Assembly: GCA_963708075.1 (NCBI GenBank)
Contig: OY970194.1
Location: forward strand, 4,352,001 to 4,416,000
DNA length: 64,000 bases
Direction of reading: 5' to 3'
From: Sedimentisphaerales bacterium
GTDB taxonomy: Bacteria; Planctomycetota; Phycisphaerae; Sedimentisphaerales; Anaerobacaceae
Made by a program: the position numbers and the translations under genes. Of the stretch, positions 28,998 to 53,112 are shown piece after piece. The first letter of the stretch is position 1, and every line of letters starts with the position of its first letter. The notes under the pieces were generated by a model. The model saw only the letters and a program-made list of their open reading frames with translations. It did not search any database and was not told the origin of the DNA.

Positions 28998-30266
28998 ATG
29001 GCCGGAGAGCGACCAGTCGGGTCTGTTCGGGAGTTGGCTGCGCGATTGAAGCAATGGATGAGTAGCGAACCTGTGCGCACCGCCGGCTCGTCCGGTATAT
29101 ACTCGCCTGTACAGTTTCAAGCGGCCCTTCAACGGGAGCAGGCCCGGGCGGAGCGTAATGGGCACCAGATCACCCTGGCGCTTCTGCATGCCAATGGCCA
29201 CAATGGCGACGCACGCAGGACATTCCGCCTGCTGGAGGCTCTCAAGAGCCGGCTTCGCGTCATGGATGAGGCAGGATGGTTCGATCCGTCGCGAATCGGC
29301 ATACTGATGCCCTACACCGCCCGCGAAGGAGCCTGGCGCATGATCGAGGATCTGTGTTCGCTTCTGGACGGAGAGCTCACGGCGGCCGATTGCAGCGTCT
29401 ACACCTACCCGTGCGATCCGAGTGACGACAGCGCGGAATTCCCTGAGCACGCCAGCAAGGATATCGACGCCACGGACTCCGGCGATGGGGCCGCCGCGGA
29501 GAATCTCTTCACGGCCACAGGTCATGGGGGCAGCCGCGGCAATTCCAGCGCCGGCGCCTCCATGGTTTGCGAGAGGGTTCATCCAGGGGTGGCGTGCACG
29601 TACCCGATCATGGTCGTTCCCAGCAGTGAGCCCTCTGCCTGGCAGCGAGGACTGGACATCGCCTGCTCGCTTCTGGGGTTTACGATCCTGGCCCCTGTCC
29701 TCCTTGGGACGGCCCTTCTGATCAAACTGGTATCCCCGGGGCCTGTGTTCTTCAAGCAGGTGAGAATTGGCCGGGGAGGCAAGCCGTTCATGCTCTGGAA
29801 GTTCCGGACCATGGTGGCCAATGCGGACAGTTCCATCCATCAGAACCACGTGGCCCGACTGATCAACGGCACCGCGGAGAACGGAGAGGCGAAGTCGAAG
29901 CCTATGACGAAGCTGGACAACGATCCCCGGGTGATTCCGCTGGGGACGATTCTGCGCGGGGCGTGCATCGATGAGCTGCCCCAGTTGATCAACGTGCTGC
30001 GCGGGGAAATGAGCATTGTCGGGCCACGTCCACCCATTCCGTACGAAGTGCGAGACTATCAACCATGGCAAAGGAGGCGTCTTGACGCGACGCCCGGGCT
30101 GACGGGACTGTGGCAGGTGAGCGGCAAGAACAAGCTGACATTCGATGAGATGGTGCGTCTGGACATCCGGTACAGCAGGGAGAAATCTGTTTGGATGAAC
30201 ATCATGATTGTGCTCAGGACCCCTCGCGCGATCCTCGAAGAGATCGCGGGGATCTGGGTCCGATAG
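28998..30266 (+). CDS. Priming sugar-1-phosphate transferase with N-terminal degenerate GGDEF-like domain
   Basis: RGLDI, KFRTM, DPRV, IDELPQLINVLRGEMSIVGPRP, PGLTGLWQVSG; N-terminal REQARAER..LRVMDEAGW..IGILMPYT. Confidence 0.9.
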   Translation: MAGERPVGSVRELAARLKQWMSSEPVRTAGSSGIYSPVQFQAALQREQARAERNGHQITLALLHANGHNGDARRTFRLLEALKSRLRVMDEAGWFDPSRIGILMPYTAREGAWRMIEDLCSLLDGELTAADCSVYTYPCDPSDDSAEFPEHASKDIDATDSGDGAAAENLFTATGHGGSRGNSSAGASMVCERVHPGVACTYPIMVVPSSEPSAWQRGLDIACSLLGFTILAPVLLGTALLIKLVSPGPVFFKQVRIGRGGKPFMLWKFRTMVANADSSIHQNHVARLINGTAENGEAKSKPMTKLDNDPRVIPLGTILRGACIDELPQLINVLRGEMSIVGPRPPIPYEVRDYQPWQRRRLDATPGLTGLWQVSGKNKLTFDEMVRLDIRYSREKSVWMNIMIVLRTPRAILEEIAGIWVR

Positions 30267-30285: not shown

Positions 30286-31320
30286 ATGCTTAAGATCGCA
30301 GTGGTTGGTTGCGGCTACTGGGGCCCTAACCTCGCGAGGAATCTCAACGCGTTGACGGATTGTCAGGTATCAGCAGCGTGCGACACAGACCCGGTCCGGC
30401 TGGCGCACATGAAGAAGCTGTATCCGAGCCTCGAGATGTGCAACGATTTCGACGGACTCCTCGAGCGCCCGGATATCGACGCCGTGGTGGTCGCCACTCC
30501 GACCCGCCTGCATTATCCCATGGCCCGCAAGATCCTGGAGTCCGGCAGACACGTGCTCGTGGAAAAGCCCATGGCCGGCTCCACTCAAGAGTGCGTCGAA
30601 CTGCTCCAGCTTGCCCAGGACAAGAAGCTGATCCTGATGGTCGGCCATACGTTCATCTACTCACCCACAGTGAGGAAGATCAAGGAAATCATCCGCCATG
30701 GGGACTTGGGCGAACTGCAGTACGTCAGCGCGCGGCGGCTCAACCTCGGCCTGTTCCAAACGGACATCAACGTGGCATGGGACCTTGCACCCCATGACAT
30801 CTCGATCATCCTCTACATCCTGGGTCAAATGCCGACCGGGGTCAACTGCCAAGGCAAGGCCCATGTGACGGCCGGCATCGAAGACGTGACCAACATGACC
30901 CTGACGTTTGCCAACGGGGCATTTGCCCTGATTCACAATAGCTGGCTCGATCCGAATAAGATTCGCCAGATGACATTCGTGGGCAAACGCAAGATGCTGG
31001 CCTATGACGATATCGAGCCCTTGGAGAAGATCCGAATCTATGACAAGCGGGTGGAAGTGCCGGAGCACTATGACTCGTTTGCCGAGTTCCACTTCTCCTA
31101 CCATCACGGGGACATATATTCCCCCTACGTCAGGCAGGTGGAATCGCTCAGCCTGGAATGCCAGCACTTTGTGGACTGCATCCACACGGGCGCCAAGCCG
31201 GAGTCGAGTGGTCTCGAAGGATTACAGGTGGTACAAGTGCTCGAGGCCGCGTCGAAATCACTCAAGACTGACGGCGGAAGGGTGGAACTCGAGTCAATCC
31301 CGGCCCTGAGCACCGCTTGA
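30286..31320 (+). CDS. Gfo/Idh/MocA family NDP-sugar oxidoreductase
   Basis: VGCGYWGPNL, VEKPM, WDLAPHD, SWLDPNK. Confidence 0.9.
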   Translation: MLKIAVVGCGYWGPNLARNLNALTDCQVSAACDTDPVRLAHMKKLYPSLEMCNDFDGLLERPDIDAVVVATPTRLHYPMARKILESGRHVLVEKPMAGSTQECVELLQLAQDKKLILMVGHTFIYSPTVRKIKEIIRHGDLGELQYVSARRLNLGLFQTDINVAWDLAPHDISIILYILGQMPTGVNCQGKAHVTAGIEDVTNMTLTFANGAFALIHNSWLDPNKIRQMTFVGKRKMLAYDDIEPLEKIRIYDKRVEVPEHYDSFAEFHFSYHHGDIYSPYVRQVESLSLECQHFVDCIHTGAKPESSGLEGLQVVQVLEAASKSLKTDGGRVELESIPALSTA

Positions 31321-32874: not shown

Positions 32875-34872
32875 GTGATGCGAGTTCGAGACCTGTCCAT
32901 CCGGCGGAACTGCTCCCGTGTCGCGGCGGCATGCCGACATGGATACGAGCGTCACTACTACCGCTGCATCCAGCGCAGACCGTCCGAGGATTGGCCCGTT
33001 GCACACGAGCAAGGCCTGCTCGGCGCGGGACAAGACCTCCGGCAGGTCGCTGCGGTCTGCCGTGAGCTGTGCCCGGAGGCTGTGGAAACCGGAATCCGCC
33101 AGGCGGACGCCATCTGTGATCACATCTTCGATCTGCTGGGCAGCGGCCCGACGAGGCTGAGTCCCCCCGGCCCCCCCTACCGGCTCATCGACTGGCACCG
33201 CGATTTCAAGAGTGGGTACGGATGGAATCCCCGGGACTTCCATCGGGATATTCAGTACGGCCACGTCCAAGGCGTGGACATCAAAGTCCCCTGGGAGCTC
33301 TCACGCTTCCAGCATCTGAATACGTTGGGGCAGGCATATGTCCTGACCGGCAACCGGGCATATGCGGCGGAATTCGTCAGCCAGATCGAGGATTGGATCC
33401 GCAGCAACCCTGTGGGCTTCGGCGTGAACTGGACGTGCACGATGGACGCCGCGATCCGGGCGGCGAACTGGCTGACGGCCGCGGAGTATTTCCATGCCGA
33501 TAACGCACTCGAGCCCCCCTTCCTGCACAGGCTCTATGCGAGCCTTCACGAGCATGGTCAGTTCATCTGCCATCATCTGGAGCACGGCGGCGGGCTGCGA
33601 ACCAATCACTATCTCTCCGACATCGCCGGCCTGCTCTTCATCGCCGGTTACTGCCCGTTTTTCAGAGAGAGCCGGGAATGGCTCGATTTCTCCATCCGGG
33701 AGCTGGTTGCAGAGATGGCGAACCAGGTATATGCCGATGGGTGCCACTTCGAAGCATCCACCTGCTACCATCGGCTGGCGCTGGAGCTGTTCTTCTTCGC
33801 GACATTGTTGGTGGTGGTCAGGGAACGAAAGTCGGGCGGCGAGAGCTATCGGCAGGCGGCCGAGAGGGTGTTCGGTTCTGACTACCTAGAGCGACTCCAC
33901 AGGATGTTCGTGGCAGTCCTGCACCTGCTGAAGCCCAATGGACGCATGCCGCAGATCGGCGATAATGACTCCGGGAGGTTTCTGGTTCTGGGCACACGTG
34001 ACGTGCTGGACATGCGATATCTGCTCTCCTTCGGTGCGGTGTTCTTTGACGAGCCCCGGTTCAAGGTGGAGGAGTTCGGATTCAGCGAGGACGCACTGTG
34101 GCTCTTCGGGCCAGGGGGATACGACACCTGGAGCGGCTTGACCGGGCGCTCGGTGGAGACGATTGACAGCAGGAGTTTCCCGCAGGCGGGATGGCACGTC
34201 CTGCGGCAGGGGCACAACTACTGCCTGGTATCCTGCGGGCCCAACGGACCCAACGGAAAAGGCGGCCACGCTCACAACGATAAGCTGAGCATCGAACTTG
34301 TCCTCGATGGGCACGACGTGGTCGTGGATCCCGGGACGTATACCTACACCCCCTGGCCCGATCGCAGGAACAGGTTCAGGTCCACAGACTACCACAACAC
34401 GGTGCAGATCGACGGGTGCGAGCAAAACGGACCGTTGAACGGCGATCTATTCAGCCTGCCGGACCGCATGAACATCCGATCCGCCCGGCTGACGGAGACT
34501 CCCGGCCAAACCACTTTCGAGGGGGAGATTGACTATGCCGGCATTGTGCATAAGAGAACGCTCCGCCTCGACAGGCAATCCCGCCAATGCAGGATAGACG
34601 ACCACATCTCATGCTCCAGATCGTTCGGCGCAGAGACGAGATTCCACCTGTCCCCGGATGTGATTGTCCGCGGCACAGGGATTCATGAGAAGGAGACGGG
34701 AAGACGGCTCGCCACCTTCGAGATCGAGGGCGGCGGCACGAAAGTGCAAACCTATGATTACTCACCGCAGTACGGACTCCGCGTGGAGGCTCCGTGCATC
34801 TGCGTTCGAATCCCTGTTGCGGCCCGTGAAGCCGCTGTCACGACAATCTTTTCTGCCGAGACAACACGATGA
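32875..34872 (+). CDS. Heparinase II/III family protein
   Basis: DIKVPWELSRFQH, NHYLSD, DGCHFEASTCYH, IGDNDSG, GHAHNDKLS, DPGTYTY, HNT. Confidence 0.9.
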   Translation: MMRVRDLSIRRNCSRVAAACRHGYERHYYRCIQRRPSEDWPVAHEQGLLGAGQDLRQVAAVCRELCPEAVETGIRQADAICDHIFDLLGSGPTRLSPPGPPYRLIDWHRDFKSGYGWNPRDFHRDIQYGHVQGVDIKVPWELSRFQHLNTLGQAYVLTGNRAYAAEFVSQIEDWIRSNPVGFGVNWTCTMDAAIRAANWLTAAEYFHADNALEPPFLHRLYASLHEHGQFICHHLEHGGGLRTNHYLSDIAGLLFIAGYCPFFRESREWLDFSIRELVAEMANQVYADGCHFEASTCYHRLALELFFFATLLVVVRERKSGGESYRQAAERVFGSDYLERLHRMFVAVLHLLKPNGRMPQIGDNDSGRFLVLGTRDVLDMRYLLSFGAVFFDEPRFKVEEFGFSEDALWLFGPGGYDTWSGLTGRSVETIDSRSFPQAGWHVLRQGHNYCLVSCGPNGPNGKGGHAHNDKLSIELVLDGHDVVVDPGTYTYTPWPDRRNRFRSTDYHNTVQIDGCEQNGPLNGDLFSLPDRMNIRSARLTETPGQTTFEGEIDYAGIVHKRTLRLDRQSRQCRIDDHISCSRSFGAETRFHLSPDVIVRGTGIHEKETGRRLATFEIEGGGTKVQTYDYSPQYGLRVEAPCICVRIPVAAREAAVTTIFSAETTR

Positions 34873-36284
34873 GAATTCGCACAATCGCCAGGAGACTCCC
34901 TCGAGCTGTCAAGCAGACCCTCAAGACAGCCTATGGAACGATTCCTCCCCGGTTTCGATTCAGCCGGACGTTTTGGGAGACCTACAACTTTCTCCAGGAG
35001 TCCCAGTGGTGGGATGCCGCCAGATTGCGGGAGTACCAGATGCGTGAGTTGGAGCGCCTTCTGGCTCACTGCTATGAGAACGTCCCCCACTACCGCCGGG
35101 TCTTCAACGAGCATGGCCTCAAGCCGAGGAACATCCAGTCCCTGGACGATCTGAGCAAGCTGCCCTGCCTGCACAAGGAGCATATCCGCAAGGAGCCGCA
35201 GGCCTTCATCGCCCGCAATCGGCGGACCGAGCACATGGAACAACGCTTTACCACCGGGACCTCGGGACAGCCGCTGCAGTTTCCCGTCGATGATGACGAG
35301 CTTGACCGGGAGTGGGCGTTCGCCTTTCATCAGTGGAGCCGCGTCGGGTACAAGCCGGGCGACGCAAGAGCGGAGATCCGGGGCCAGCACATTACGGGTC
35401 CAAGGCCGTATGTGTGGGATCCCGTCCTTCGTGCCCTGCGTCTGTCACCCCTGGTGCGGGAACGAGGGACCGTCGCCCTCTACCTGGAGACCATCCGGTC
35501 CTACGGGATCAAGTTCCTCTACGGGTATCCCAGCGCGATCACCAACTTTGCTCTGTTGGTGAAGCGGTACGGGATTCGCGTGGACCTCAAGCTCACCGCG
35601 ATCCTGTTCGCCTCCGAGACACTGTACCCTTGGCAGCGGACACTCGCCCAGGACGTATTCGCGTGTCCCTCGTACAACTTCTACGGGCTGGCCGAGCACG
35701 TGGTGATCGGCGGGGAGTGTGAGCACAGCGTTGCGTTCCACTGCATGCCCCAGTACGGGGTCACCGAGGTGGACCCGCGAACCGGTGAGATCACCGGGAC
35801 CGGCTTTCTGAACTATGTCCATCCGTTCATCCGCTACAGGACCGCCGACGTGGCTTCGGTGCCGGTGGGCAGCGGCTGCGAGCGGTGCGGCAGACAATAC
35901 TATCCGGTCCTGCCGGACGTCCTTGGCCGGCTCCAGGATTTCATCGTCACGCCGGAGGGCACATCCATCGGCCATTGTCTCCTGACGTTTCCCTTCAAGG
36001 AAAGCCACACCATCGGCCGCGTGCAGATCGTCCAGGAGGCGACCGATCGCGTGACTCTCAGGACGGCGCCCGTCGATGATCGCGACATGCGACAATTCAC
36101 GAAAGATCTGACTCATGCAATCGATGTCCTGCAACGGATGCTGGGAGACAGTGTATCGATCAGGAATGAAATGATCCCTCCGGAGGAATGTACAGGCCCT
36201 GGAAAACTGCAATTCATCGTCTCACACCTGCCGGAGCACCTTCGGTGTTACAGTGCGAACGGGACTTCTGAAGCTGTCGCCTGA
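34869..36284 (+). CDS. Phenylacetate-CoA ligase / CapK-like adenylate-forming protein
   Basis: TTGTSGQP, GYPS, YGLAE, PFIRYRTAD, GRLQD. Confidence 0.85.
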   Translation: MRIRTIARRLPRAVKQTLKTAYGTIPPRFRFSRTFWETYNFLQESQWWDAARLREYQMRELERLLAHCYENVPHYRRVFNEHGLKPRNIQSLDDLSKLPCLHKEHIRKEPQAFIARNRRTEHMEQRFTTGTSGQPLQFPVDDDELDREWAFAFHQWSRVGYKPGDARAEIRGQHITGPRPYVWDPVLRALRLSPLVRERGTVALYLETIRSYGIKFLYGYPSAITNFALLVKRYGIRVDLKLTAILFASETLYPWQRTLAQDVFACPSYNFYGLAEHVVIGGECEHSVAFHCMPQYGVTEVDPRTGEITGTGFLNYVHPFIRYRTADVASVPVGSGCERCGRQYYPVLPDVLGRLQDFIVTPEGTSIGHCLLTFPFKESHTIGRVQIVQEATDRVTLRTAPVDDRDMRQFTKDLTHAIDVLQRMLGDSVSIRNEMIPPEECTGPGKLQFIVSHLPEHLRCYSANGTSEAVA

Positions 36285-36347
36285 GCACCGTGCTCCGCGC
36301 ACTGCGGATACACCAACTCAGGGCGAAAAGAACGGGACGCCAGACAA

Positions 36348-37412
36348 GTGCGAACATTGGAGCTGATTGCCGTTGGGGATGTATCGCTCACGGGTCCGGA
36401 CGGGCAGGACCCGTTCGAATGCGTCGCACGGCTCTTGCACACCGGGGATATCGTGTTCGGGAACCTGGAATGCGCGCTCTGCGATATAGGCCCTGAGGCC
36501 GAGAAGGAGGTCACCCTGCGAGCGGCCCCCGCGAGGGCCGGATACCTGCGTCAGGCCGGCTTCGATATCGTCAGTGTGGCGAACAACCATGTCCTGGACT
36601 TCGGTCCGACGGGTCTCGATCAGACTCTCGCGGCGCTGCGGGAGCAAGGGATTCGCTTCGTCGGCGCCGGCAGCACGGCATCTCAGAGAGGATACGAAAT
36701 CATCGAGCGTGAGGGACTGAGAGTCGGATTCCTCGCCTACCATGAGATGGATCCAGGCAGCCCCCAGGACGAGGCCCTGGTCAATCGCATAGATCGCAGC
36801 ACCATTCTCCGGCAAATCTCCGATCTGAAGCAGCAATGTGACGTTGTCGTCGTTTCTCTTCACTGGGGCATCGAGTACATTCACTATCCTTCTCCCGGGC
36901 AGATCCAACTGGCGCACGATCTCCTTTGCAACGGCGCCGCATTGGTGCTCGGCCATCACCCTCACGTGGTCCAGGGAATCGAGTGGATCGAAAGAGGGCT
37001 GATCGCCTACTCGCTCGGGAGCTTCCAATTCGAACCGAGAAGGGAGGAGGCGAGACATTCATTCATTCTCCAGGCCAGGATCAGTGCCTGTGGCGTGGAG
37101 GACTACAAGGTGATCCCGGCCCACATTGGAGAAGGAGAGCGTCCCCACCGGATCAGGAACCCCCCCCGGCGGGAGATGCTGCGATTCATCAAGCGGATTA
37201 GCGAGCCCATCAGCGACGGCCGCATCACGGACAAATGGTGGTTCGAGCGGGCAGGCGCCACGTATCTGCACAACAATCTGCAGGCATGGGCAGCGAGAAT
37301 CAGAAGGTACGGTCTCAGGCACCTCGTGTCATGCGCGCGATGGCTCGTGTCCCGCTTCACGATCAAATGCTACTTGGGGTGCCTGAGGGCCCTGGTCGGT
37401 CCGCATGAGTGA
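36348..37412 (+). CDS. CapA/PgsA family metallophosphoesterase-like protein
   Basis: AVGD, GNLE, ANNHVLDFG, HWGIE, GHHPHV, YSLGSF. Confidence 0.88.
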   Translation: MRTLELIAVGDVSLTGPDGQDPFECVARLLHTGDIVFGNLECALCDIGPEAEKEVTLRAAPARAGYLRQAGFDIVSVANNHVLDFGPTGLDQTLAALREQGIRFVGAGSTASQRGYEIIEREGLRVGFLAYHEMDPGSPQDEALVNRIDRSTILRQISDLKQQCDVVVVSLHWGIEYIHYPSPGQIQLAHDLLCNGAALVLGHHPHVVQGIEWIERGLIAYSLGSFQFEPRREEARHSFILQARISACGVEDYKVIPAHIGEGERPHRIRNPPRREMLRFIKRISEPISDGRITDKWWFERAGATYLHNNLQAWAARIRRYGLRHLVSCARWLVSRFTIKCYLGCLRALVGPHE

Positions 37413-44923: not shown

Positions 44924-47023
44924 ATGGATGTTATGCTTGCAGCAAGAACGCTTGCACTCTTCTCGATGCTGTGCCTCCTCCCCAGACCATGCGCCTGTCT
45001 CGGGCAAACGCCCCAAGTGCTGTTCATCACTCCCGGCAGTCCTGGCGCCGAGTGGCCGACAATTACCGCTCTTTGCGATCTCTATGGACTGACTTGTGGC
45101 TGGCGCTCCCCAACGCAAGCGGCCGCGGAGCTGAGTCCCTCCAAGACGGACAGACAAGCCACTCTGGCCGCCATTGTAGAGGCTTCCATTCCCGGTCCCA
45201 CGACATCCCGGTCCGATGTCACGGCCCTGTGGAAGTCCCTGCGAGCCGCCCGTATACCTGTTCTCATACTATCCACGCGGCCTTCGATGCTGTCTGTGCC
45301 CGATCCTAATGGATCGAGCGTATTCGCCAGTCTTCAGCTTGTCCGCCTGGAGAAGAAGCTGTCGTCCTGGCAAACCACACAGGCAAACCAGACGCTGATG
45401 CGGGAGCTCACGGCAGTATCAGCCGGGATCCGGCACAACGCACAGTCGAGCACGATCGTCCTCGGTTCGGCCAGCCCCGACAACAGGGTCGTACCCCTCA
45501 TGCTGGTCCGGTCCACGGATGGAACTTCGTATCCCATCTACAGCGAGATCAAAGGCACGGAGGGTCTCGTCTTCTGTGCCGCGTTCAGCCATCCTGTACC
45601 GGACGGCGGGTTCGTATTCGACCCTGAGAAGGATGGGAATCTCATCAGCATCATTCCCCTTCTGACCTTCCTGCGGTTTGCCGGCGGACCGTACTGCTGG
45701 CATCGCGGCTCGGACTGCGCCAATCTGACCATCGACGATCCCTGGCTGACGGAGCCGTACGGATTCCTCAATTACAGGGGTCTGCTGGCGCAGATGCGAA
45801 AGGCCCGCTTCCACACCACGATTGCATTCATCCCGTGGAACTACGACAGGAGCAGCGACAAGGTGGTGGCGCTCTTCCGGGAGCATCCGAAGCACTACTC
45901 CATCTGCATTCATGGAAACAATCACGATCGCTGGGAGTTCTACAAATATCACACGATCCCGGCAGATCCGCTGCCGGCCAAGCCTCTGCCTGTCCAGGAA
46001 GCTAACATCCGGCAGGGCCTTACCCGCATGGAGCAATTCAGGCAACTGACCGGCCTGGACTTCGATCCGGTCATGGTCTTTCCTCAGTACATCGCTCCCC
46101 TGGAGACCTTCGGGCTGCTGAAAAAATACAATTTCCTGATCACCTCAAACGCCACGAACATCCCCCTGAATCTTGATCCGCCGCCGGACCCCGTTTTCCA
46201 CCTTCGGTCGGTCACAGACTACTACGAAGACTTTGCCAGCGTGATAAGGTATCCGCCGGCCGACAGATCTCGGGCCGCCATCGCTCTCGACCTGTTCCTC
46301 GACAACCCGGTCCTGTTCTTCGAGCATCACACATTATTTCGGCGTGGAATAGACGCATTCAATAAGACTGCGGAGATGGTGAACGCCCTTCAGCCCGACA
46401 CGAAATGGACCAGCCTGGGCGATACGGCGCGGCACTCGCATCTGCAGAGAAGTCGTCCCGACGGCAACCTTGATATCCGGGCCTTCTGCCGAAGCATCGA
46501 CCTGGAGAACGACCAGCAACATGAGCTGACCTGTTTTGTGGAGAAAGCGGAGACACTGGACGTACCGATCCGGCATGTGCTTGTCGATGGCGCGCCTCAT
46601 ACGTATACCGTCTCCGATGGGCGACTCCGTCTCACGGTCGAGGTAGCATCGCATCAATCCCGTCGTATCGACATCGAATACGAGGACAACTTCCAGGTTG
46701 CACAGGCGGATATCGCGAAGAACGATCCTCGCGTGAACCGCATTCGCGCTCTCTCGGATTTGAGGGATTGCACCCTGATGCGAAATGTGGTGACGAGGTC
46801 GGTGGTCAGCTTCTACTACGCAAGCATGTTGTACCGGCTCGGTCTCAAAGGGGCCGCGGTCGTGTGTTTCATCGTTGCCGTCGCGGCAGCTATCGGCGGG
46901 TGGAGGCTGCGGAGATGGATGAGCCGGCGAGCTCAGCGAATGGAGATTCGACCCACTCCACCACGCGCGGCAGGAGCTATCCCTGCGAAGCAAGGACTTG
47001 AGCAGGCGCCGAATCGCACCTGA
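44924..47023 (+). CDS. Exported membrane-anchored protein with polysaccharide-deacetylase-like core
   Basis: Signal-like N-terminus; TIDDPW and IHGNNH metal-site-like motifs; C-terminal TM plus basic tail. Confidence 0.5.
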   Translation: MDVMLAARTLALFSMLCLLPRPCACLGQTPQVLFITPGSPGAEWPTITALCDLYGLTCGWRSPTQAAAELSPSKTDRQATLAAIVEASIPGPTTSRSDVTALWKSLRAARIPVLILSTRPSMLSVPDPNGSSVFASLQLVRLEKKLSSWQTTQANQTLMRELTAVSAGIRHNAQSSTIVLGSASPDNRVVPLMLVRSTDGTSYPIYSEIKGTEGLVFCAAFSHPVPDGGFVFDPEKDGNLISIIPLLTFLRFAGGPYCWHRGSDCANLTIDDPWLTEPYGFLNYRGLLAQMRKARFHTTIAFIPWNYDRSSDKVVALFREHPKHYSICIHGNNHDRWEFYKYHTIPADPLPAKPLPVQEANIRQGLTRMEQFRQLTGLDFDPVMVFPQYIAPLETFGLLKKYNFLITSNATNIPLNLDPPPDPVFHLRSVTDYYEDFASVIRYPPADRSRAAIALDLFLDNPVLFFEHHTLFRRGIDAFNKTAEMVNALQPDTKWTSLGDTARHSHLQRSRPDGNLDIRAFCRSIDLENDQQHELTCFVEKAETLDVPIRHVLVDGAPHTYTVSDGRLRLTVEVASHQSRRIDIEYEDNFQVAQADIAKNDPRVNRIRALSDLRDCTLMRNVVTRSVVSFYYASMLYRLGLKGAAVVCFIVAVAAAIGGWRLRRWMSRRAQRMEIRPTPPRAAGAIPAKQGLEQAPNRT

Positions 47024-47086
47024 CATCAGGCTGCGTGCTGAGACGCGGCCGTTTGCTGGACCTGAGGAAGACTGTCTGCTGTGGAG

Positions 47087-48181
47087 ATGGCTGGAACGAT
47101 GAGTGATCCATTCCGCCCGGAGTTGTCGCACGAGTTCTACTCTCGGATGTACCTGATCCGAACCGTGGAGAGCTCCCTGCTGGAACTGTTTGGCCGTGGT
47201 GCGATTACGGGAACCGTCCATACCTGTATCGGCCAGGAGGCCTGTGCCGTCGGCGTCGTGGACGCATTGGACAAGCATCGCGACGTCCTGTTCTCGAATC
47301 ATCGCGCTCACGGCCACTACATCGCTTACTGTGACGACGTGGAGGGCCTGATCGCGGAAATCATGGGCAGGAAGTCCGGCGTATGTGGAGGGACCGGCGG
47401 CTCACAGCATCTTCACAAGCACAACCTGTACACGAACGGGATTCAAGGCGGCATCGTTCCCAACGCGGTGGGCGCCGCCCTGGCCGCCAAGAAGCTGGGT
47501 ACCGGGGCGATCTCCGTTGTCTTCGTGGGAGACGGCACGATGGGCCAGGGCGTCGTCTACGAGAGCTTGAACGTGGCGTCGCTGTGGTCTCTGCCTGTTC
47601 TGTTCGTGCTGGAGGACAACGGATACGCGCAGACAACGCCGAAACACCTTGCCCACGCCGGGCATCTGACCGATCGCGCCAGAGCGTTCAACGTGGACGT
47701 ACAGGCAGTGGCCGCTGACGATGTTTTCGTTGTGCACGCAGCAACCGCCGAAGCGGTGAAGCAGGTGCGGGAAGCCCAACGCCCATTCTTCCTTTCGCTG
47801 AGCACGTATCGCTTGTCACCGCACAGCAAAGGCGACGATTTCCGCAGTGAGGCGGAGATCGAGTCGTATCGCGCCAAAGATCCGCTCTCGCGGTTGGCGA
47901 TGCGGATACCGGACGACGGGCGGCTTGTCATTGAGGAGCGGGCACGACAGCGAGTCCGCCGGGCGATTGAGCTGGCGCAGGAATCGGCTCCGGCAGACCC
48001 TCTTACTCCCCTGGACGGAGCATATGATGAAGCCACTGATGTACCTGGAGGCGATTCGAGGCTGTCTGCACACGTTGATGGAGGAAGATTCCGCGATCAT
48101 CCTCCTGGGCGAGGACTTGCTGGATCCGTACGGCGGGGCCTTCAAAGTGACCCAGGGGCTGTCGACGCGCTTCCCCGATAG
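47087..48181 (+). CDS. TPP-dependent dehydrogenase E1 alpha subunit (true end possibly 48027)
   Basis: HTCIGQEA, SNHRAHGH, GGSQH, GDGTMGQG..EDN (TPP motif), TYRLSPHSKGD. Confidence 0.9.
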   Translation: MAGTMSDPFRPELSHEFYSRMYLIRTVESSLLELFGRGAITGTVHTCIGQEACAVGVVDALDKHRDVLFSNHRAHGHYIAYCDDVEGLIAEIMGRKSGVCGGTGGSQHLHKHNLYTNGIQGGIVPNAVGAALAAKKLGTGAISVVFVGDGTMGQGVVYESLNVASLWSLPVLFVLEDNGYAQTTPKHLAHAGHLTDRARAFNVDVQAVAADDVFVVHAATAEAVKQVREAQRPFFLSLSTYRLSPHSKGDDFRSEAEIESYRAKDPLSRLAMRIPDDGRLVIEERARQRVRRAIELAQESAPADPLTPLDGAYDEATDVPGGDSRLSAHVDGGRFRDHPPGRGLAGSVRRGLQSDPGAVDALPR

Positions 48182-49034
48182 GGTCCTCGCAACGCCCATC
48201 TGCGAGGCCACCATCGTAGGGCTGGGGGTCGGGGCGGCTCTCCAGGGTCTGCGGCCCATCGTGGAAGTGATGTTCGGTGATTTCCTGACCCTGGCGTGCG
48301 ACCAGATCGTCAATCACGCGGTCAAGTACCAGCAGATGTATGGCTGCAGGGTCGAGGTCCCGCTGGTCATCCGGACCCCCATGGGAGGCGGGCGCGGCTA
48401 TGGACCCACGCACAGCCAGAGCATCGAGAAGCTTTTCCTTGGAGTCCCGGGACTCAGCGTGGTGTCTCCCTCGCTTTTCCACGATGCAGGCGAGTTACTC
48501 AGACAAGCGGTGGATCGTCGCAGGGTGGTGCTATTCCTCGAACATAAGCTGCTCTACCCCGAGCGGCTGATCCTGGAATCGACGGGCGGTCTGTGGCATG
48601 AAACGACGCCGGAAGCTTCGGGATTTCCCACCGTCGTGATCAGGAATTTTCGAGACTCGACTCCGGATGTGACCTTGATCTGTTATGGCGGGATCAGCCG
48701 CATGATTCCGCAGTTGCTGGCGGACATGGCCCGGGAGGAGATCAGGGTCGAAACGTGTCTGCCGGCCTGTCTTCAACCCCTGCCTGTGGCCACGATGGTC
48801 TCTCTGGTGCGACGGAGCAAGAGAGCGGTGGTGATTGAGGAAGGCACGACAGGGTACGACTGGGGGGCGGAAGTGAGCAGTCAGTTGCACAAGTACCTGT
48901 GGGGCGTCCTGGAGCGCCCCGTCGCACGGGTGGGCTCGCTGCCTACCGTGATCCCGACATCGAGGGAAGCCGAGGAGCGTATGCTGGTTTCTCAGGAGAC
49001 AATCAGTACTGCCATATTGGAGGTGTTGCAGTGA
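48024..49034 (+). CDS. TPP-dependent dehydrogenase E1 beta subunit
   Basis: LGED, YGGAFKVT, TPICE, GLRPIVEVMF, GPTHSQS, EHKLLY; GGAG RBS. Confidence 0.92.
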   Translation: MMKPLMYLEAIRGCLHTLMEEDSAIILLGEDLLDPYGGAFKVTQGLSTRFPDRVLATPICEATIVGLGVGAALQGLRPIVEVMFGDFLTLACDQIVNHAVKYQQMYGCRVEVPLVIRTPMGGGRGYGPTHSQSIEKLFLGVPGLSVVSPSLFHDAGELLRQAVDRRRVVLFLEHKLLYPERLILESTGGLWHETTPEASGFPTVVIRNFRDSTPDVTLICYGGISRMIPQLLADMAREEIRVETCLPACLQPLPVATMVSLVRRSKRAVVIEEGTTGYDWGAEVSSQLHKYLWGVLERPVARVGSLPTVIPTSREAEERMLVSQETISTAILEVLQ

Positions 49035-50209
49035 TGAATCGATCCATCGTGCTTCTTCCTCGTATTAGCCCGAACGAGGATGCGGCGATCATCATCGAAT
49101 GGACCAAATCCGAGGGGGATCACGTACGCGCGGGGGAAGTGGTCTGCGCGGCGGAGACGACGAAGTCCCTCTTCGATGTGGAGGCGGATGCGGAAGGCTA
49201 TCTGTTCATCCTGATGCAGGCGGGGGCTGAGGCCGCCGTCGGACAACCACTGGCCGTCATTTCCAGCGACCAGCATGACACGCCGGAGGCAATCCACGCA
49301 TGGATCGCCAGTACGGCATCCCCATCGGCTTCGCCGTCCGATACGAGAGCGGAGCGGACCTGGACACAGAAGGCGGAGCTCCTTGCGCACCGTCACGGGA
49401 TCGATCTGGCCCAGGTGCCATCAAGCGGAGGAAGAATCGGCGAGTCGGATGTCCTGGCCTACCTGGAAAGCCGAGCGGGCCGACCCGCCGCGGCCGCACA
49501 GGAACATCGGGACATCGTGGATGGCACGTACCAAACCGGACGAGTGGATCGCCTGCTCATTGTCGGCGGCGGGGATGGCGCGGTGCAGCTCCTGGATGCC
49601 ATTTTCAAATCAGGCAAGCAACGTGCAGTGGCTATCCTGGACGACAACGCGAGCTTGCACGGCAAGACCATCATGGGGGTGCCTGTCGTCGGGCCGATTC
49701 AGGAAGACCTGGTGGCCGGCATGCTGGAGAAGGACGAATTCGATCACGCCGTGATTTCCATCAGTACGCTCATCCCGCTTCGCCGACGGATTTTCGAGCA
49801 ATTGACGCGCAGAGGCGTGCCCTTTGCAAATGTGATTCACCCCACCGCCTGCATCGGCGCCAATGTGAGCATTGGCCGCGGGAACGTCATCCTCGGCTTC
49901 TGCCATATCGGGGCCTGCGCCACCATCGGCGACAACAACTTCCTCAGCGCATACGTGAGCATCGAGCATCACAACGAGATTGCCAACCACTGCAGCTACG
50001 GACCTGCGGTGGTGGCGTCGAGCCGGGTCAAGGTGGGCGACTGCACCCGTTTCGGAACGGGCGTATTCATGGAGCCCAAGATCAGCATCGGAGCCAATTC
50101 GGTGATCGGCTCCGGCTGCATCCTGCGAGGCAACGTCCCCGCCGATTCGGTGGTCCGGACCCAATTGAACTACGTGACACGACCATTAAGACCAATCGAG
50201 CAACCATAG
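49034..50209 (+). CDS. Lipoyl domain + peripheral subunit-binding domain + NeuD/PglD-type left-handed beta-helix sugar acyltransferase fusion
   Basis: EGDHV..AETTKSLFDVEADAEG (lipoyl-Lys); GIDLAQV..GGRIGESDV; IVGGGDG, ILDDN, NVIHPTA, IEHHN, hexapeptide repeats. Confidence 0.85.
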   Translation: MNRSIVLLPRISPNEDAAIIIEWTKSEGDHVRAGEVVCAAETTKSLFDVEADAEGYLFILMQAGAEAAVGQPLAVISSDQHDTPEAIHAWIASTASPSASPSDTRAERTWTQKAELLAHRHGIDLAQVPSSGGRIGESDVLAYLESRAGRPAAAAQEHRDIVDGTYQTGRVDRLLIVGGGDGAVQLLDAIFKSGKQRAVAILDDNASLHGKTIMGVPVVGPIQEDLVAGMLEKDEFDHAVISISTLIPLRRRIFEQLTRRGVPFANVIHPTACIGANVSIGRGNVILGFCHIGACATIGDNNFLSAYVSIEHHNEIANHCSYGPAVVASSRVKVGDCTRFGTGVFMEPKISIGANSVIGSGCILRGNVPADSVVRTQLNYVTRPLRPIEQP

Positions 50210-50231
50210 GAGACCGCAAAGGAGGAGTCAT

Positions 50232-51378
50232 ATGATGCATGTACCGCTTCTTGACCTCGGTGCACAGTACAGGTCGATTCGTGACGAGCTTACCCCGGCC
50301 CTGCAAAGTGTGCTGGAGAGCACAGCGTTTGCGGGCGGGCCGTTTGTGGCCACGTTCGAGAAGGAGTTCGCCGCCTACTGCGGGTGCGAGCAGGCCCTCG
50401 GGGTCAGCAGCGGCACGTCCGCGCTCTGGCTTGCCCTTGTCGGACTCGGCGTAGGGGCCGGCGACGAGGTCATCACGACCCCGAATACATTCATCGCCAC
50501 AGCCGAAGCCATCAGCTTCTGCGGCGCTACCCCGGTGTTCGTCGATGTGGACCCTGAGAACCTGTACGATGGACCCGGACCTTCTGGAGCCCGCGATCAC
50601 TTACCGCACAAAAGCTATCATTCCCGTTCATCTGTACGGTCAACCAGCGGACATGGACCCGATCCTCGCCGTGGCCAGGCGCCACGGGCTGCTCGTCATC
50701 GAGGATGCCTGCCAGGCACACGGGGCCGAGTACAAGGGCCGAAAGGCCGGCACACTCGGCGACGCAGGCTGCTTCAGTTTCTACCCGGGCAAGAACTTGG
50801 GAGCCTACGGCGAGGCGGGCGCGGTGGTCACGAACGATGCCGAACTGGCCCAGAAGATCCGCATGCTTCGCGACCACGGCCAGAGCGAGAAATACAAGCA
50901 CGCCGTGATCGGCTGGAATGACCGCATGGACGGCCTGCAGGGCGCGGTCCTGAGCGTCAAACTCAGGCATCTCGACGAGTGGAACGATGCCCGACGGGAG
51001 CGCGCCGGTTTCTACGACGAGCTCCTGGAGGATTTGCCGCACATCGTGCTTCCCCGCGAGGCCCCCTATGCCCGGCACGTCTACCATATCTTCGCCGTCC
51101 GCGTGCCGAATCGGGACAAATTCCTTGCAGCACTGAATAATTGGGGCATCGGATGCGCGATTCATTATCCCGTGCCCATCCACCTCCAAAAGGCCTACGA
51201 ATTCCTCGGCTATCGAAAGGGCAGCTTCCCCGTAGCGGAGAGAATCGCCCAGGAGGTCCTCTCCCTCCCCATGTACCCCGAGATGACGATACGACAACTG
51301 GAGACGGTCGCCGATGCGCTCGCATCTCTGCTGAGAACGCGGGAGTTCTCCGCCCCGACCCCGGCTCATGCCATATAG
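50232..51378 (+). CDS. DegT/DnrJ/EryC1/StrS NDP-sugar aminotransferase; +1 frameshift at 50556-50562
   Basis: SGTSAL, NTFIAT, PVHLYGQ, EDACQAHG, SFYPGKNLG, LSLPMYP. Joins if GAGAACC is read as GAGACC (DPETCTMDP). Confidence 0.9.
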
Positions 51379-51384
51379 CCGCGC

Positions 51385-53112
51385 TTAGCGGGCGGGGAAA
51401 CGCAGCAGGGTGATGCTCAGCGGGGCCACCTGCAATGAAGGGTCGTGGCGCACCGGCTGTTCCACAATCTTCACCTGTTCGCCGCCATTGTCGTTGGTCC
51501 ACGAGGGATCGACCTTCCACATCGCCTCGGCCACCTGATTATGCTTGAGCGTGTACTGGCTCAATTGCATGAAGCCCAATTGCCAGGGGCCCCACATCTC
51601 ATTTCCCACGCACCAGTACTTCACGCTATACGGCTTGGCATGGCCATTCTTCGCGCGCCAACTTCCGCCGACCGTATCGGCCGACCCGTTACAGTATTCG
51701 ACCTCTTGAGCGGCCGAATAGGCATCGCCGAAGCCGGTATTCACTGCGATCACAGGCTCGGTCCCCACCTCGCGGCAGAAATCGATGAACTCATCCAGCC
51801 CGAAATCGTTGTGCTCGACGCCGGTCCATGCGGGGTTCTTGCGAGGCGGCCGACGGTCGCGGTCGCCGATGCCGTCACGCCAGTCGTAACCGCTGACGAA
51901 ATTACCGCCGGGCCAGCGATACATCGTCCCGCCGAGTTGCCGGAGCCGCTTGAGCGTGTCGGCCCGCATGCCACGGATGTTGTCGGCGAGCATGAGGGAG
52001 GCTGTGCCGATCAGCACCTCGCCTCGTGTGACACGGATCTCCAGCATCGCCTTGTCCGCATCTGCACCGGCGGTGAATTTCAATGGATGCTTGCGGTACT
52101 TGCGATTGAGGCCGTCGATGCGAATGGTCTTACGGGCATTGGCCCCCTCGCCCCAGACCAGCGTGACATCCACCGAGGCCGTGGACCTCGGCGCAGCCAG
52201 CCAGATATAGCCAACGTAGTCTTTGCCCTTCACAACGCCCAGGTCGCGCTGTCGAAGGCCAGCGCCGGAGCGGACCTGGGGCGTGTGCTTGCCCACAAAC
52301 GGGTCCTTCTCCACCATGGTCACCGCCTCCGCCGGCCCGATGATCTCCCATGGCGACGCACCGACGACCGGGAACGGCGTATCCGTCAACTCGCGGTAGG
52401 GCTTGTACTCGGCGGTGATCGGGAAGTAGAACTTGCGGTCTTCGAGCATCTCGGCCCAGATGCCGCCGTAGATGCACCGGCCCAGGTGCTCGATGAATTG
52501 GCCGTAGATGAACGGGTTGATCGGCGAGCCTGAACGATCCGTACGAAGCGTCACAACAGGCACAAAGCCCGTCAGGTCGAGCTTCTCCAGACTGACATCA
52601 TCGAACCACGCCTGTCCCGTGGATTGGCCCCAGCCGCCGAGGAGGCAGTGGACGCTGATCTGACGCTGGTCGCCGGTGCGCACCAGGCTCTCAACACGAG
52701 TCCACCCTGCGGAGCCTGTGACGGCGGTTGTACGGGCACTCCCCTGCAACTCATGGACATTCAGCAGCGCTCCACGTCCGGACCCACTCTTGAGGCCCTC
52801 GGTTCGAATCCAACCCGAGAGTCGATACGTGCTGTTCGGCTCCACCTCGATCCTGGCCACCCAACACACGTCTCCGCCTTTGTCGGACCGAATCGTGACA
52901 CACTTGCCGCCCGTTCTGCCGCCATCGACGCAGCGGAACCGGCCCTCGCCGCCCCATGTGTGCGGGGTCCACCCGATCGGCTGATCACCACCCTGCTCGA
53001 ACGAGGGGTTGGGCAGGAGATTCGGCCCTTGCGCGGAAACGGACACGGTGGGCACACTCTGCGATAGCAGCATTGTGACGAGCCATCCGATGGTACAGCA
53101 CATCTGTCTCAT
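51385..53112 (-). pseudogene. GH51 alpha-L-arabinofuranosidase-like with N-terminal CBM-like domain; apparent large in-frame internal deletion
   Basis: YGQFIEHLGRCIYGG, RWPGGNF, ENDFG-like EHNDFG, WCVGNEMWG. About 26 aa later the sequence jumps to a C-terminal tail (VAPLSITLL). Confidence 0.7.

Follow-up and report, generated by a model that had tools for sequence, protein, structure and literature searches.

We analysed a stretch of 64,000 nt from a Sedimentisphaerales bacterium (contig OY970194.1, positions 4,352,001-4,416,000 of the forward strand; assembly GCA_963708075.1, genome G000 in our set), which is called the window below. A Wzx/Wzy-type exopolysaccharide (EPS) operon in the window ends with four genes, which encode the alpha and beta subunits of an E1 component of the 2-oxoacid dehydrogenase type (E1alpha and E1beta), a protein in which a lipoyl domain is fused to a PglD-type sugar acyltransferase, and a DegT-type aminotransferase. 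Judging from sequence, we consider it reasonably likely that E1 loads the fused lipoyl arm, that the PglD/PerB-type domain acylates a nucleoside diphosphate (NDP)-amino sugar without acyl-coenzyme A (acyl-CoA), and that the housekeeping lipoamide dehydrogenase (E3) resets the arm.

A lipoyl-PglD fusion gene follows an E1 gene pair

All four genes were found where an earlier note, made from the DNA letters of this stretch, had placed them. E1alpha, the subunit that binds thiamine diphosphate (ThDP), is encoded by an open reading frame (ORF) of 366 aa on the + strand (47081..48181; Pfam E1_dh, 1.2e-58), whose homologous part ends near residue 313. E1beta (336 aa, + strand) extends from an ATG at 48024 to 49034 and matches Transket_pyr (6e-31) and Transketolase_C. 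The gene of the 391-aa fusion protein occupies 49034..50209 on the + strand. The gene of the DegT/DnrJ/EryC1-type, pyridoxal phosphate-dependent aminotransferase follows at 50232..51378 (+ strand), as the note had said, but it is read in two frames, which the note had overlooked: the N part extends to ~50561 and the C part starts from ~50563.

Between 47023 and 51378, the genes are first separated by 57 nt, then overlap at two junctions and are last separated by 22 nt, which leaves no room for an acyl carrier protein (ACP) gene. The translational coupling claimed earlier differs by junction. The stop of E1beta and the start of the fusion gene have one base in common (TGATG), whereas the fusion and DegT genes are separated by 22 nt, which contain AAGGAGG, and E1alpha overruns its partner: its frame lacks a stop at the usual ATGA junction and continues for 157 nt (52 codons) inside E1beta (48024-48181). 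The displaced stop is also present in an independent contig (L020), and the absence of the junction stop thus looks real. A scan of positions 46900-51700 returned one promoter-like and one terminator-like site, at or below the counts in shuffled sequence.

Domain structure of the fusion protein

The fusion protein consists, in this order, of a lipoyl domain, a linker, a subunit-binding-like domain, a second linker, a PglD_N domain and a left-handed beta-helix. The motifs ETTK, IHPTA and EHH, reported in the earlier note, are located at residues 41-44, 268-272 and 311-313. The lipoyl domain (residues 8-76, + strand 49055..49261; Biotin_lipoyl PF00364, 2.2e-10) carries the presumed lipoyl-lysine, Lys44, in the motif ETTKS (codon 49163-49165, + strand). 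The subunit-binding-like domain (residues ~108-148, + strand 49355..49477) contains T111, K113, A114, GIDL and the pattern G-x-R-I-x-E-x-D-V. PglD_N (residues 173-257) and the beta-helix (~260-375) together occupy 49550..50158 on the + strand and are matched by PF17836 (2.3e-4; 22.1 bits, slightly below the cut-off of 23.4) and Hexapep (1e-9), with IHPTA starting at 49835 and the catalytic E311-H312-H313 encoded at 49964-49972 (+ strand). The family model TIGR03570 (NeuD/PglB/VioB) matched with 3.5e-39 and 134.5 bits, below its curated cut-off of 160.8. PF00198, the CAT-like core of the dihydrolipoyl acyltransferase (E2), had no match in this fusion or in any of 24 family members.

The N-terminal half resembles that of a true E2. 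Residues 8-146 aligned by BLASTP with the E2 protein P0272, which has both PF02817 and PF00198, at 37% identity (7e-22), and when residues 1-160 alone were used as the query, E2s matched over 84-95% of this part. In an AlphaFold2 model computed on 92 family members (mean predicted local distance difference test score, pLDDT, 89.8), a beta-barrel (residues 1-77) and a helix (84-94) are followed by a low-confidence linker (97-106), two helices at a pLDDT of ~90 (112-120 and 137-148), another low-confidence linker (149-161), an alpha/beta domain (172-259) and a regular beta-helix (~260-375). On the E2 alignment and the two confident helices, we accepted a divergent subunit-binding domain with a putative binding role.

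The C-terminal half is of the PglD/PerB type. Foldseek matched it to PerB with a template modelling (TM) score of 0.88 on the target (E 6e-14), and also to Neisseria PglB-ATD, PglD, VioB and WeeI (TM 0.81-0.88 on the targets for these and PerB) and to Pcryo_0637, and it matched the N-terminus to the lipoyl domains 1y8n_B and 3crk_C (TM 0.75-0.82). By sequence the best solved relative was PerB 4ea7 (phmmer, 1.2e-17). His312 aligns with PerB His141, which is the sole residue differing between 4ea7 and 4eaa, the latter titled H141N. The top solved relatives are all titled N-acetyltransferases of nucleotide amino sugars or acetyltransferases of pilin/protein glycosylation, and chains of LpxA and LpxD were among the PDB matches. 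A complex prediction with three copies of residues 165-391 and the lipoyl domain (residues 1-82) gave a score of 0.00, which is evidence neither way.

The fusion family and its invariant residues

Database searches with the fusion revealed a large family in which a lipoyl domain is fused to a hexapeptide beta-helix. An exhaustive search of 1.84 billion representatives returned 292 clusters (50% identity) at E<=1e-30, with end-to-end alignment in most of the 150 matches listed. A word-indexed search scored 8000 candidates, of which 390 reached E<=1e-3; among the 120 matches listed, 116 carry both PF00364 and PF00132 in a protein of ~380-430 aa. Hexapep was detected in 24/24 and PF17836 in 20/24 family members. 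In the protein atlas, the commonest phylum of the nearest clusters with the same architecture is Chloroflexota, Pseudomonadota, Planctomycetota or Actinomycetota. The fusion is rare in the phylum of the window itself: 15 of 401 genomes matched at E<=1e-20, and only three (G000, G205 and G067) over both halves. A search of genome contigs with the fusion alone gave just three loci, each matched in the lipoyl part only, and two of them carry normal E2 or E3 genes (L003, L001/L002).

Five residues, Glu41, Lys44, Ala114, Asp203 and His312, are invariant in 92/92 aligned members. The lipoyl lysine and the transferase histidine, which lie in motifs named in the earlier note, are thus kept throughout the family.

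The linked E1 subunits retain residues for lipoyl acylation

The key codons of E1alpha on the + strand are those of the GDG motif (D151, 47531), N180 (47618), Gln184 (47630) and His248 (47822), and those of E1beta are Glu61 (48204), Phe87 (48282) and His130 (48411). By alignment to 1w85_B/3duf_B, the three E1beta residues correspond to E59beta, F85beta and H128beta of the Geobacillus stearothermophilus enzyme. From the alignment with the human subunit, we take E1alpha His248 to be the counterpart of H271alpha. In E1 pairs linked to the fusion, E1beta Glu61 was kept in 56/56, Phe87 in 56/56 and His130 in 57/58 loci, and in E1alpha the GDG motif was kept in 44/44, Asn180 in 46/46 and His248 in 46/46 loci. 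The accessible text of the paper on the Geobacillus enzyme assigns ThDP activation to E59beta and a proton-donor role in acetyl transfer to lipoate to H128beta, and states that H271alpha assists this transfer and that I206alpha touches the thiazolium ring (PMC2663715). Thus, the linked E1s retain the residues for acylation of a lipoyl arm, beyond those for decarboxylation alone, in line with the earlier statement that E1 reductively acylates a lipoyl lysine.

The position of I206alpha is occupied by Gln184 in the window, whereas the pyruvate dehydrogenase (PDH) E1 has Ile or Met. Gln was found in 40 of 41 E1alphas beside PglD-type fusions and in all five beside shorter lipoyl-beta-helix fusions (45/46 together), and Met in the E1alpha of locus L069, in two canonical E1alphas and in the E1alphas that neighbour a lipoyl-FabH fusion. 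A maximum-likelihood tree was computed for 41 E1alphas after omission of duplicate loci and of matches of <240 residues, and hence of all FabH-linked rows; it split the 38 linked to beta-helix fusions from the two canonical sequences and L069 with 100/99 support. Triad-linked E1alphas of other lineages are 46-62% identical to that of the window, and the housekeeping E1alpha of the same genome is 32% identical. The fusion-linked E1alphas, apart from that of L069, form a dedicated clade of their own. The conserved Gln at the thiazolium contact is the only hint of a substrate other than pyruvate. Among solved structures, human pyruvate E1alpha was nearest (4.6e-45), ahead of branched-chain E1alpha (~1e-26), and the scores were below cut-off with both TIGR03182, the pyruvate E1alpha equivalog (242.6 bits, cut-off 393.85), and NF006667 (192.6 bits, cut-off 321).

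Gene linkage and neighbourhoods

A metagenome scan with the family alignment gave 80 loci, to which two from genomes (L005 and L014) were added. Linkage was counted in those 57 of the 82 loci in which one tblastn match extended across both halves of the fusion; the other 25, with partial or lipoyl-only matches, were omitted. In the 46 loci with at least 1 kb upstream, E1beta was located directly upstream of the fusion in 44 and at any position in 45, and E1alpha was present in 33 of 36 loci with at least 2 kb upstream. This linkage persists down to a fusion identity of 24-27%. The exceptions are L027, with restriction-modification and PIN genes upstream, L069, with E1 downstream, and L064, which yielded no E1alpha. 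Of 42 evaluable loci, 12 have DegT immediately downstream and 19 have it at any position. The expectation that homologs be linked to E1 and aminotransferase genes, on which the earlier note had staked its proposal, was thus borne out for E1 and in part for DegT. A free PglD-like gene beside an E1beta-like gene in G172 was considered as a split form and rejected, as the surrounding 16 kb contained neither E1alpha nor a lipoyl protein.

The set found in the window, a Bac_transf phosphoglycosyl transferase, a GFO/IDH/MocA oxidoreductase, the triad of E1alpha, E1beta and fusion, and DegT, is present together in L023, L030, L036, L045 and L049, and L060 is alike but lacks DegT. Among 19 longer neighbourhoods annotated with Pfam, nine, including those of G205, G067 and L069, contain clear sugar-nucleotide or glycan genes and three have a nearby UDP-glucose dehydrogenase only. 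In the two other fusion-bearing genomes of the phylum, methyltransferase/radical S-adenosylmethionine (SAM) or 4,6-dehydratase genes plus DegT adjoin the triad: G205 has the order DegT-E1alpha-E1beta-fusion-radical SAM, with the triad beside DegT, and in G067 divergently transcribed 4,6-dehydratase and DegT genes lie beside it. L069 is a nonulosonic-acid-type cluster with NeuB, cytidylyltransferase, DegT, WbqC and ATP-grasp genes. Its gene order is fusion-E1alpha-E1beta (L069:6983-10086), and its E1alpha, with Met, groups on long branches with the canonical E1s; the same architecture may have been assembled independently in this locus.

The flanking genes of the relatives were called with a crude ORF picker, which may miss small genes such as those of ACPs. 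Triads outside glycan clusters adjoin pantothenate kinase and aldo-keto reductase genes, or polyprenyl synthase and transglycosylase genes. In the stand-alone triads L029 and L052, a Fumble pantothenate kinase and an aldo-keto reductase are encoded upstream, with a 4HBT thioesterase in L052, and in L022, L024 and L026 a holo-ACP synthase (ACPS) gene adjoins on the opposite strand.

No E2 core or E3 is encoded within the 64-kb window, as the earlier note had stated. They lie elsewhere in the genome: E2 cores (PF00198) at 3.20 and 5.08 Mb and lipoamide dehydrogenase (lpd) at 1.55 Mb, with the window at 4.352-4.416 Mb. An LplA/LipB-type gene and lipA adjoin lpd. Apart from the triad, each of the three fusion-bearing genomes encodes lipoamide dehydrogenase, enzymes of the LplA/LipB type and a pair of normal E2 cores. 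The second E2 catalytic domain of the window's genome (G000:C1:5078721-5079410) lies in an open frame of only 265 aa, where a genome-wide PF00364 search detected no lipoyl domain; either the gene is broken or the protein may be an E2 that lacks this domain.

Proposed mechanism

In the mechanism that we propose, an E1alpha2beta2 tetramer with ThDP would decarboxylate a small 2-oxoacid and reductively acylate the lipoyl group of Lys44 of the fusion, which would use its subunit-binding domain to dock on E1. Next, the S-acyl-dihydrolipoyl arm would enter the acyl-donor cleft of the trimeric beta-helix of the fusion, the usual site of acetyl-CoA. His312 would take a proton from the amine of an NDP-amino sugar held by PglD_N, and the acyl group would pass to the sugar nitrogen with no acyl-CoA intermediate. 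The amino sugar would be supplied by the GFO oxidoreductase and DegT of the operon, the arm would be re-oxidised by the housekeeping E3, and Bac_transf would use the acylated sugar to begin the EPS repeat unit. Pyruvate may be the source of the acyl group, which would then be acetyl. We consider a group other than acetyl slightly more likely, because of the Gln at the cofactor contact throughout the clade and the cost of three genes, and N-glycolyl is one candidate among several.

Several observations weigh against this mechanism. DegT is read in two frames in this assembly. The subunit-binding domain named in the earlier note is recovered by the E2 alignment and the model helices, but Pfam E3_binding has no match in the fusion of the window and matches only 4 of 24 members at E<=0.01. 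Since the E1 is most like pyruvate E1, its product may be plain acetyl, and it would then not be apparent what the module gains over acetyl-CoA. The alignment of the beta-helix with that of the CoA-using PerB is free of gaps, and the number of coils is equal; thus the sequence excludes no ordinary use of acyl-CoA. Of the 42 loci with 1.3 kb or more downstream, 23 lack DegT, and 7 of the 19 annotated neighbourhoods contain no glycan gene, a point that the earlier note had missed. Finally, a tblastn search (E<=1e-6) of the 80 metagenome loci, 596 kb in total, detected no homolog of E3, LipB or LipA, so that turnover would rely on an unlinked E3.

The shared coil number bears on an alternative in which the fusion is an ordinary acetyl-CoA-dependent PglD-like transferase, and its lipoyl and docking domains are regulatory or tether an E1 with another job, such as the ThDP-dependent attachment of a two-carbon branch to a keto sugar, as proposed for AviB1/AviB2. 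Sugar branching is known to involve E1-like pairs that lack an E2, and the operon would make a keto sugar by its GFO oxidoreductase. A mere tether needs no lipoyl lysine, but Lys44 is invariant. E1beta His130, whose counterpart is tied to lipoate acylation and not to decarboxylation in the accessible text of PMC2663715, is also kept in all linked loci but one. We regard this explanation as unlikely.

The many triads that stand alone in neighbourhoods without glycan genes would also fit an E2 surrogate, in which the beta-helix passes the acyl group from the arm to CoA, a thiol or a carrier, the triad acts as a small 2-oxoacid dehydrogenase, and other enzymes use the acyl-CoA. The CoA/pantetheine-related genes near some triads (L029/L052 and L022/L024/L026) point in the same direction, and beta-helix acetyltransferases, like the E2 core, form trimers and act on CoA thioesters. 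However, the C-terminal half belongs to the PglD/PerB/VioB class, with a nucleotide-binding PglD_N domain and the catalytic His, and its top solved relatives are, by their titles, acetyltransferases of nucleotide amino sugars or of pilin/protein glycosylation. Each of the three fusion-bearing genomes already has its two normal E2 cores, and Pfam annotation of the operon in the window revealed no other acetyltransferase or candidate N-acyltransferase for the DegT product. An E2 surrogate is therefore quite improbable in our estimate, and direct transfer from the lipoyl arm to the amino sugar is retained as the favoured mechanism.

The frameshift in DegT

The two parts of DegT match Pfam in different frames, with 1.2e-31 (positions 3-97) and 4.1e-89 (positions 96-359). 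The break, at 50559/50560, is accounted for by one surplus A in GAGAACC (50556-50562). In the relatives L019 and L021, which are 86-93% identical to the DegT parts, the gene is in a single frame. Only one of four public sequencing runs, X2, covers position 50559, and X1, X3 and X4 have no contig there. The X2 contig (337 nt, depth 4.6) has one base fewer at 50559, which restores a single frame, and differs in one other letter.

Core genes elsewhere in the same single-contig assembly look broken as well (G000:C1:1554081-1555593 and L110/L115). The lipA gene is split over two frames, the LplA/LipB gene contains an in-frame TGA, and the housekeeping E1beta gave two overlapping high-scoring segment pairs in different frames, as judged by their start coordinates. 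This suggests that indel errors occur genome-wide in this assembly. Since the X2 contig lacks the surplus base and other core genes are broken, the frameshift in DegT is probably an assembly error, a conclusion that rests partly on one thin contig. The two frames of DegT and the displaced E1alpha stop could instead be read as marks of a genuine frameshift in a decaying module, with the pathway dead in this organism. Such decay is very unlikely, because the X2 contig and the relatives have DegT in one frame, the same assembly breaks lipA, LplA/LipB and the housekeeping E1beta, the remaining genes of the module are intact, and the E1alpha overlap is common to the independent contig L020.

Lipoyl fusions with other acyltransferases

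Two further kinds of fusion were found behind E1 pairs. In three genomes of the same phylum (G334, G101 and G319), a protein composed of a lipoyl domain, E3_binding and a complete FabH (beta-ketoacyl-ACP synthase III, KAS III) is encoded directly after E1alpha-E1beta (L120:6224-7858, L121:5878-7431 and L017:1492-2964). Its N-terminal lipoyl and subunit-binding module is 36% identical over 168 aa to that of the fusion in the window, and its FabH part matches solved FabH with 1e-77 and conserves Cys and the motifs HQAN and GNTS, presumably the catalytic Cys, His and Asn. The second kind comprises shorter lipoyl-hexapeptide proteins without PglD_N, also after E1 pairs: those of L083 (1144-2226), L091 (6986-8008), L092 (6989-8044) and L095 (6989-8053) have 340-360 aa, and that of L094 (2329-3807) has 492 aa. 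The E1alphas of L091, L092, L094 and L095, the loci that extend to this gene, carry the same Gln signature. The presence of two unrelated acyl-CoA-using enzymes, PglD-type and FabH, in the place of the E2 core is, in our view, the best comparative argument for the arm as acyl donor.

It is possible, though doubtful as a whole, that lipoyl arms are acyl carriers of general use, independent of CoA, for acyltransferases unrelated to E2. Taken together in that tentative scheme, the E1s of the Gln clade might make acyl-lipoyl from hydroxylated or other unusual 2-oxoacids, such as hydroxypyruvate, 2-oxo-3,4-dihydroxybutanoate or 4-hydroxy-2-oxopentanoate, the PglD-type domains might add N-glycolyl, N-glyceroyl or N-3-hydroxybutanoyl groups to amino sugars or nonulosonic-acid precursors, and the FabH fusion might prime fatty-acid synthesis likewise.

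Comparison with known systems

The E2 of PDH, branched-chain ketoacid dehydrogenase and acetoin dehydrogenase resembles the fusion in its N-terminal lipoyl and subunit-binding domains, flexible linkers and gene position after E1alpha-E1beta. The fusion differs in that PglD_N and the beta-helix replace the CAT-like core, no E3 is linked, and an amino sugar is presumed to take the place of CoA as the acceptor. The usual lysine motif of E2 is DKA, whereas the fusion has ETTKS. PerB, PglD, Neisseria PglB-ATD, VioB and WeeI share the fold, IHP(S/T)A, the catalytic His and the logic of a DegT neighbourhood with the fusion. In contrast, the proteins of this class are free-standing, of ~200 aa, and use acetyl-CoA, whereas the fusion bears a lipoyl arm, travels with E1 and scores below the NCBIfam cut-off.

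LpxA and LpxD, which use acyl-ACP, are beta-helix trimers that transfer an acyl group from a protein-borne thioester arm to a UDP-sugar, as is proposed here. Their carrier is a separate ACP with phosphopantetheine, whereas the carrier proposed here is a fused lipoyl domain charged by E1. AviB1/AviB2 of avilamycin biosynthesis are E1alpha and E1beta homologs that act without E2 and E3 in a sugar pathway, and this pair has been proposed to attach a ThDP-bound C2 unit to a keto-sugar carbon. AviB1/AviB2 are not known to have a lipoyl partner, whereas the E1 pairs described here always come with a lipoyl protein and retain the lipoate-acylation histidines.

Among the published accounts consulted, the closest logic is that of QncN/QncL/QncM of quinocarcin and SclQ1-4 of scleric acid biosynthesis, in which, according to the accessible text of PMC6335953, an E1-like ThDP enzyme loads a C2 acyl group onto a lipoyl domain and no E3 is clustered. 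A dedicated E1, lipoyl loading for biosynthesis and the lack of E3 in the cluster are thus common to these systems and the module described here. On the same partial account, an E2-type domain there passes the glycolicacyl group to an ACP for nonribosomal peptide synthesis, whereas the present module has neither ACP nor E2-type domain and its presumed acceptor is a sugar amine. No description of a lipoyl domain fused to PglD/NeuD or FabH was found in the full-text literature, a search outside whose reach most subscription journals lie. One candidate paper (PMC4875605) was rejected as irrelevant, since 'lipoylation' denotes fatty acylation in its accessible text.

Other genes of the polysaccharide operon

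According to Pfam annotation, the polysaccharide genes on the + strand extend from ~25.9 kb to 51.4 kb of the window. The run starts with Poly_export, Wzz and a P-loop kinase-like protein, continues with FG-GAP, a heparinase II/III-like protein, a PaaK-like ligase and PGA_cap, and further includes a Wzx-type flippase, a Wzy_C protein and three or four glycosyltransferases, all on the + strand. A convergent glycoside-hydrolase-like gene on the opposite strand follows DegT. The Bac_transf gene (28998..30266, + strand; Pfam 3.6e-59) encodes the likely user of the acylated amino sugar, which would be the first sugar of the repeat unit. The GFO/IDH/MocA oxidoreductase (Pfam; 30286..31320, + strand) matched NF040723, UDP-GlcNAc 3-dehydrogenase, with 1.1e-52, below the cut-off, and is a likely sugar-nucleotide 3-dehydrogenase that would give the keto sugar for DegT.

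At 34869-37412 of the window, a PaaK/F390-synthetase-like AMP ligase and a PGA_cap (CapA-like) protein are encoded within the EPS operon, and further unusual substituents are therefore possible. Directly upstream of E1alpha lies a gene of 699 aa (44924-47023, + strand) without a Pfam or NCBIfam match. In an atlas feature search, its product came close to Acidobacteriota clusters without a name and, at 0.91-0.92, to clusters of the DUF2194/DUF2334 and polysaccharide-deacetylase-like kinds, which we treat as a lead only.

Significance

The module is widespread and constitutes a large family without a name of its own. Its members are currently called 'biotin/lipoyl-containing protein' or 'NeuD family O-acyltransferase', or carry a wrong GlmU label. 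Because current annotation names only a lipoyl-containing or NeuD-family protein, genome-based glycan predictions miss the module. In the accessible text of PMC5378307, the enzymes for N-glyceroyl and possible N-glycolyl nonulosonic acids are called unknown. If the proposed mechanism is true, it would represent a new use of lipoate and a route in which three genes lead from a 2-oxoacid to an N-acyl sugar while bypassing acyl-CoA, and the module would be a candidate source of unusual N-acyl groups on bacterial surface sugars.

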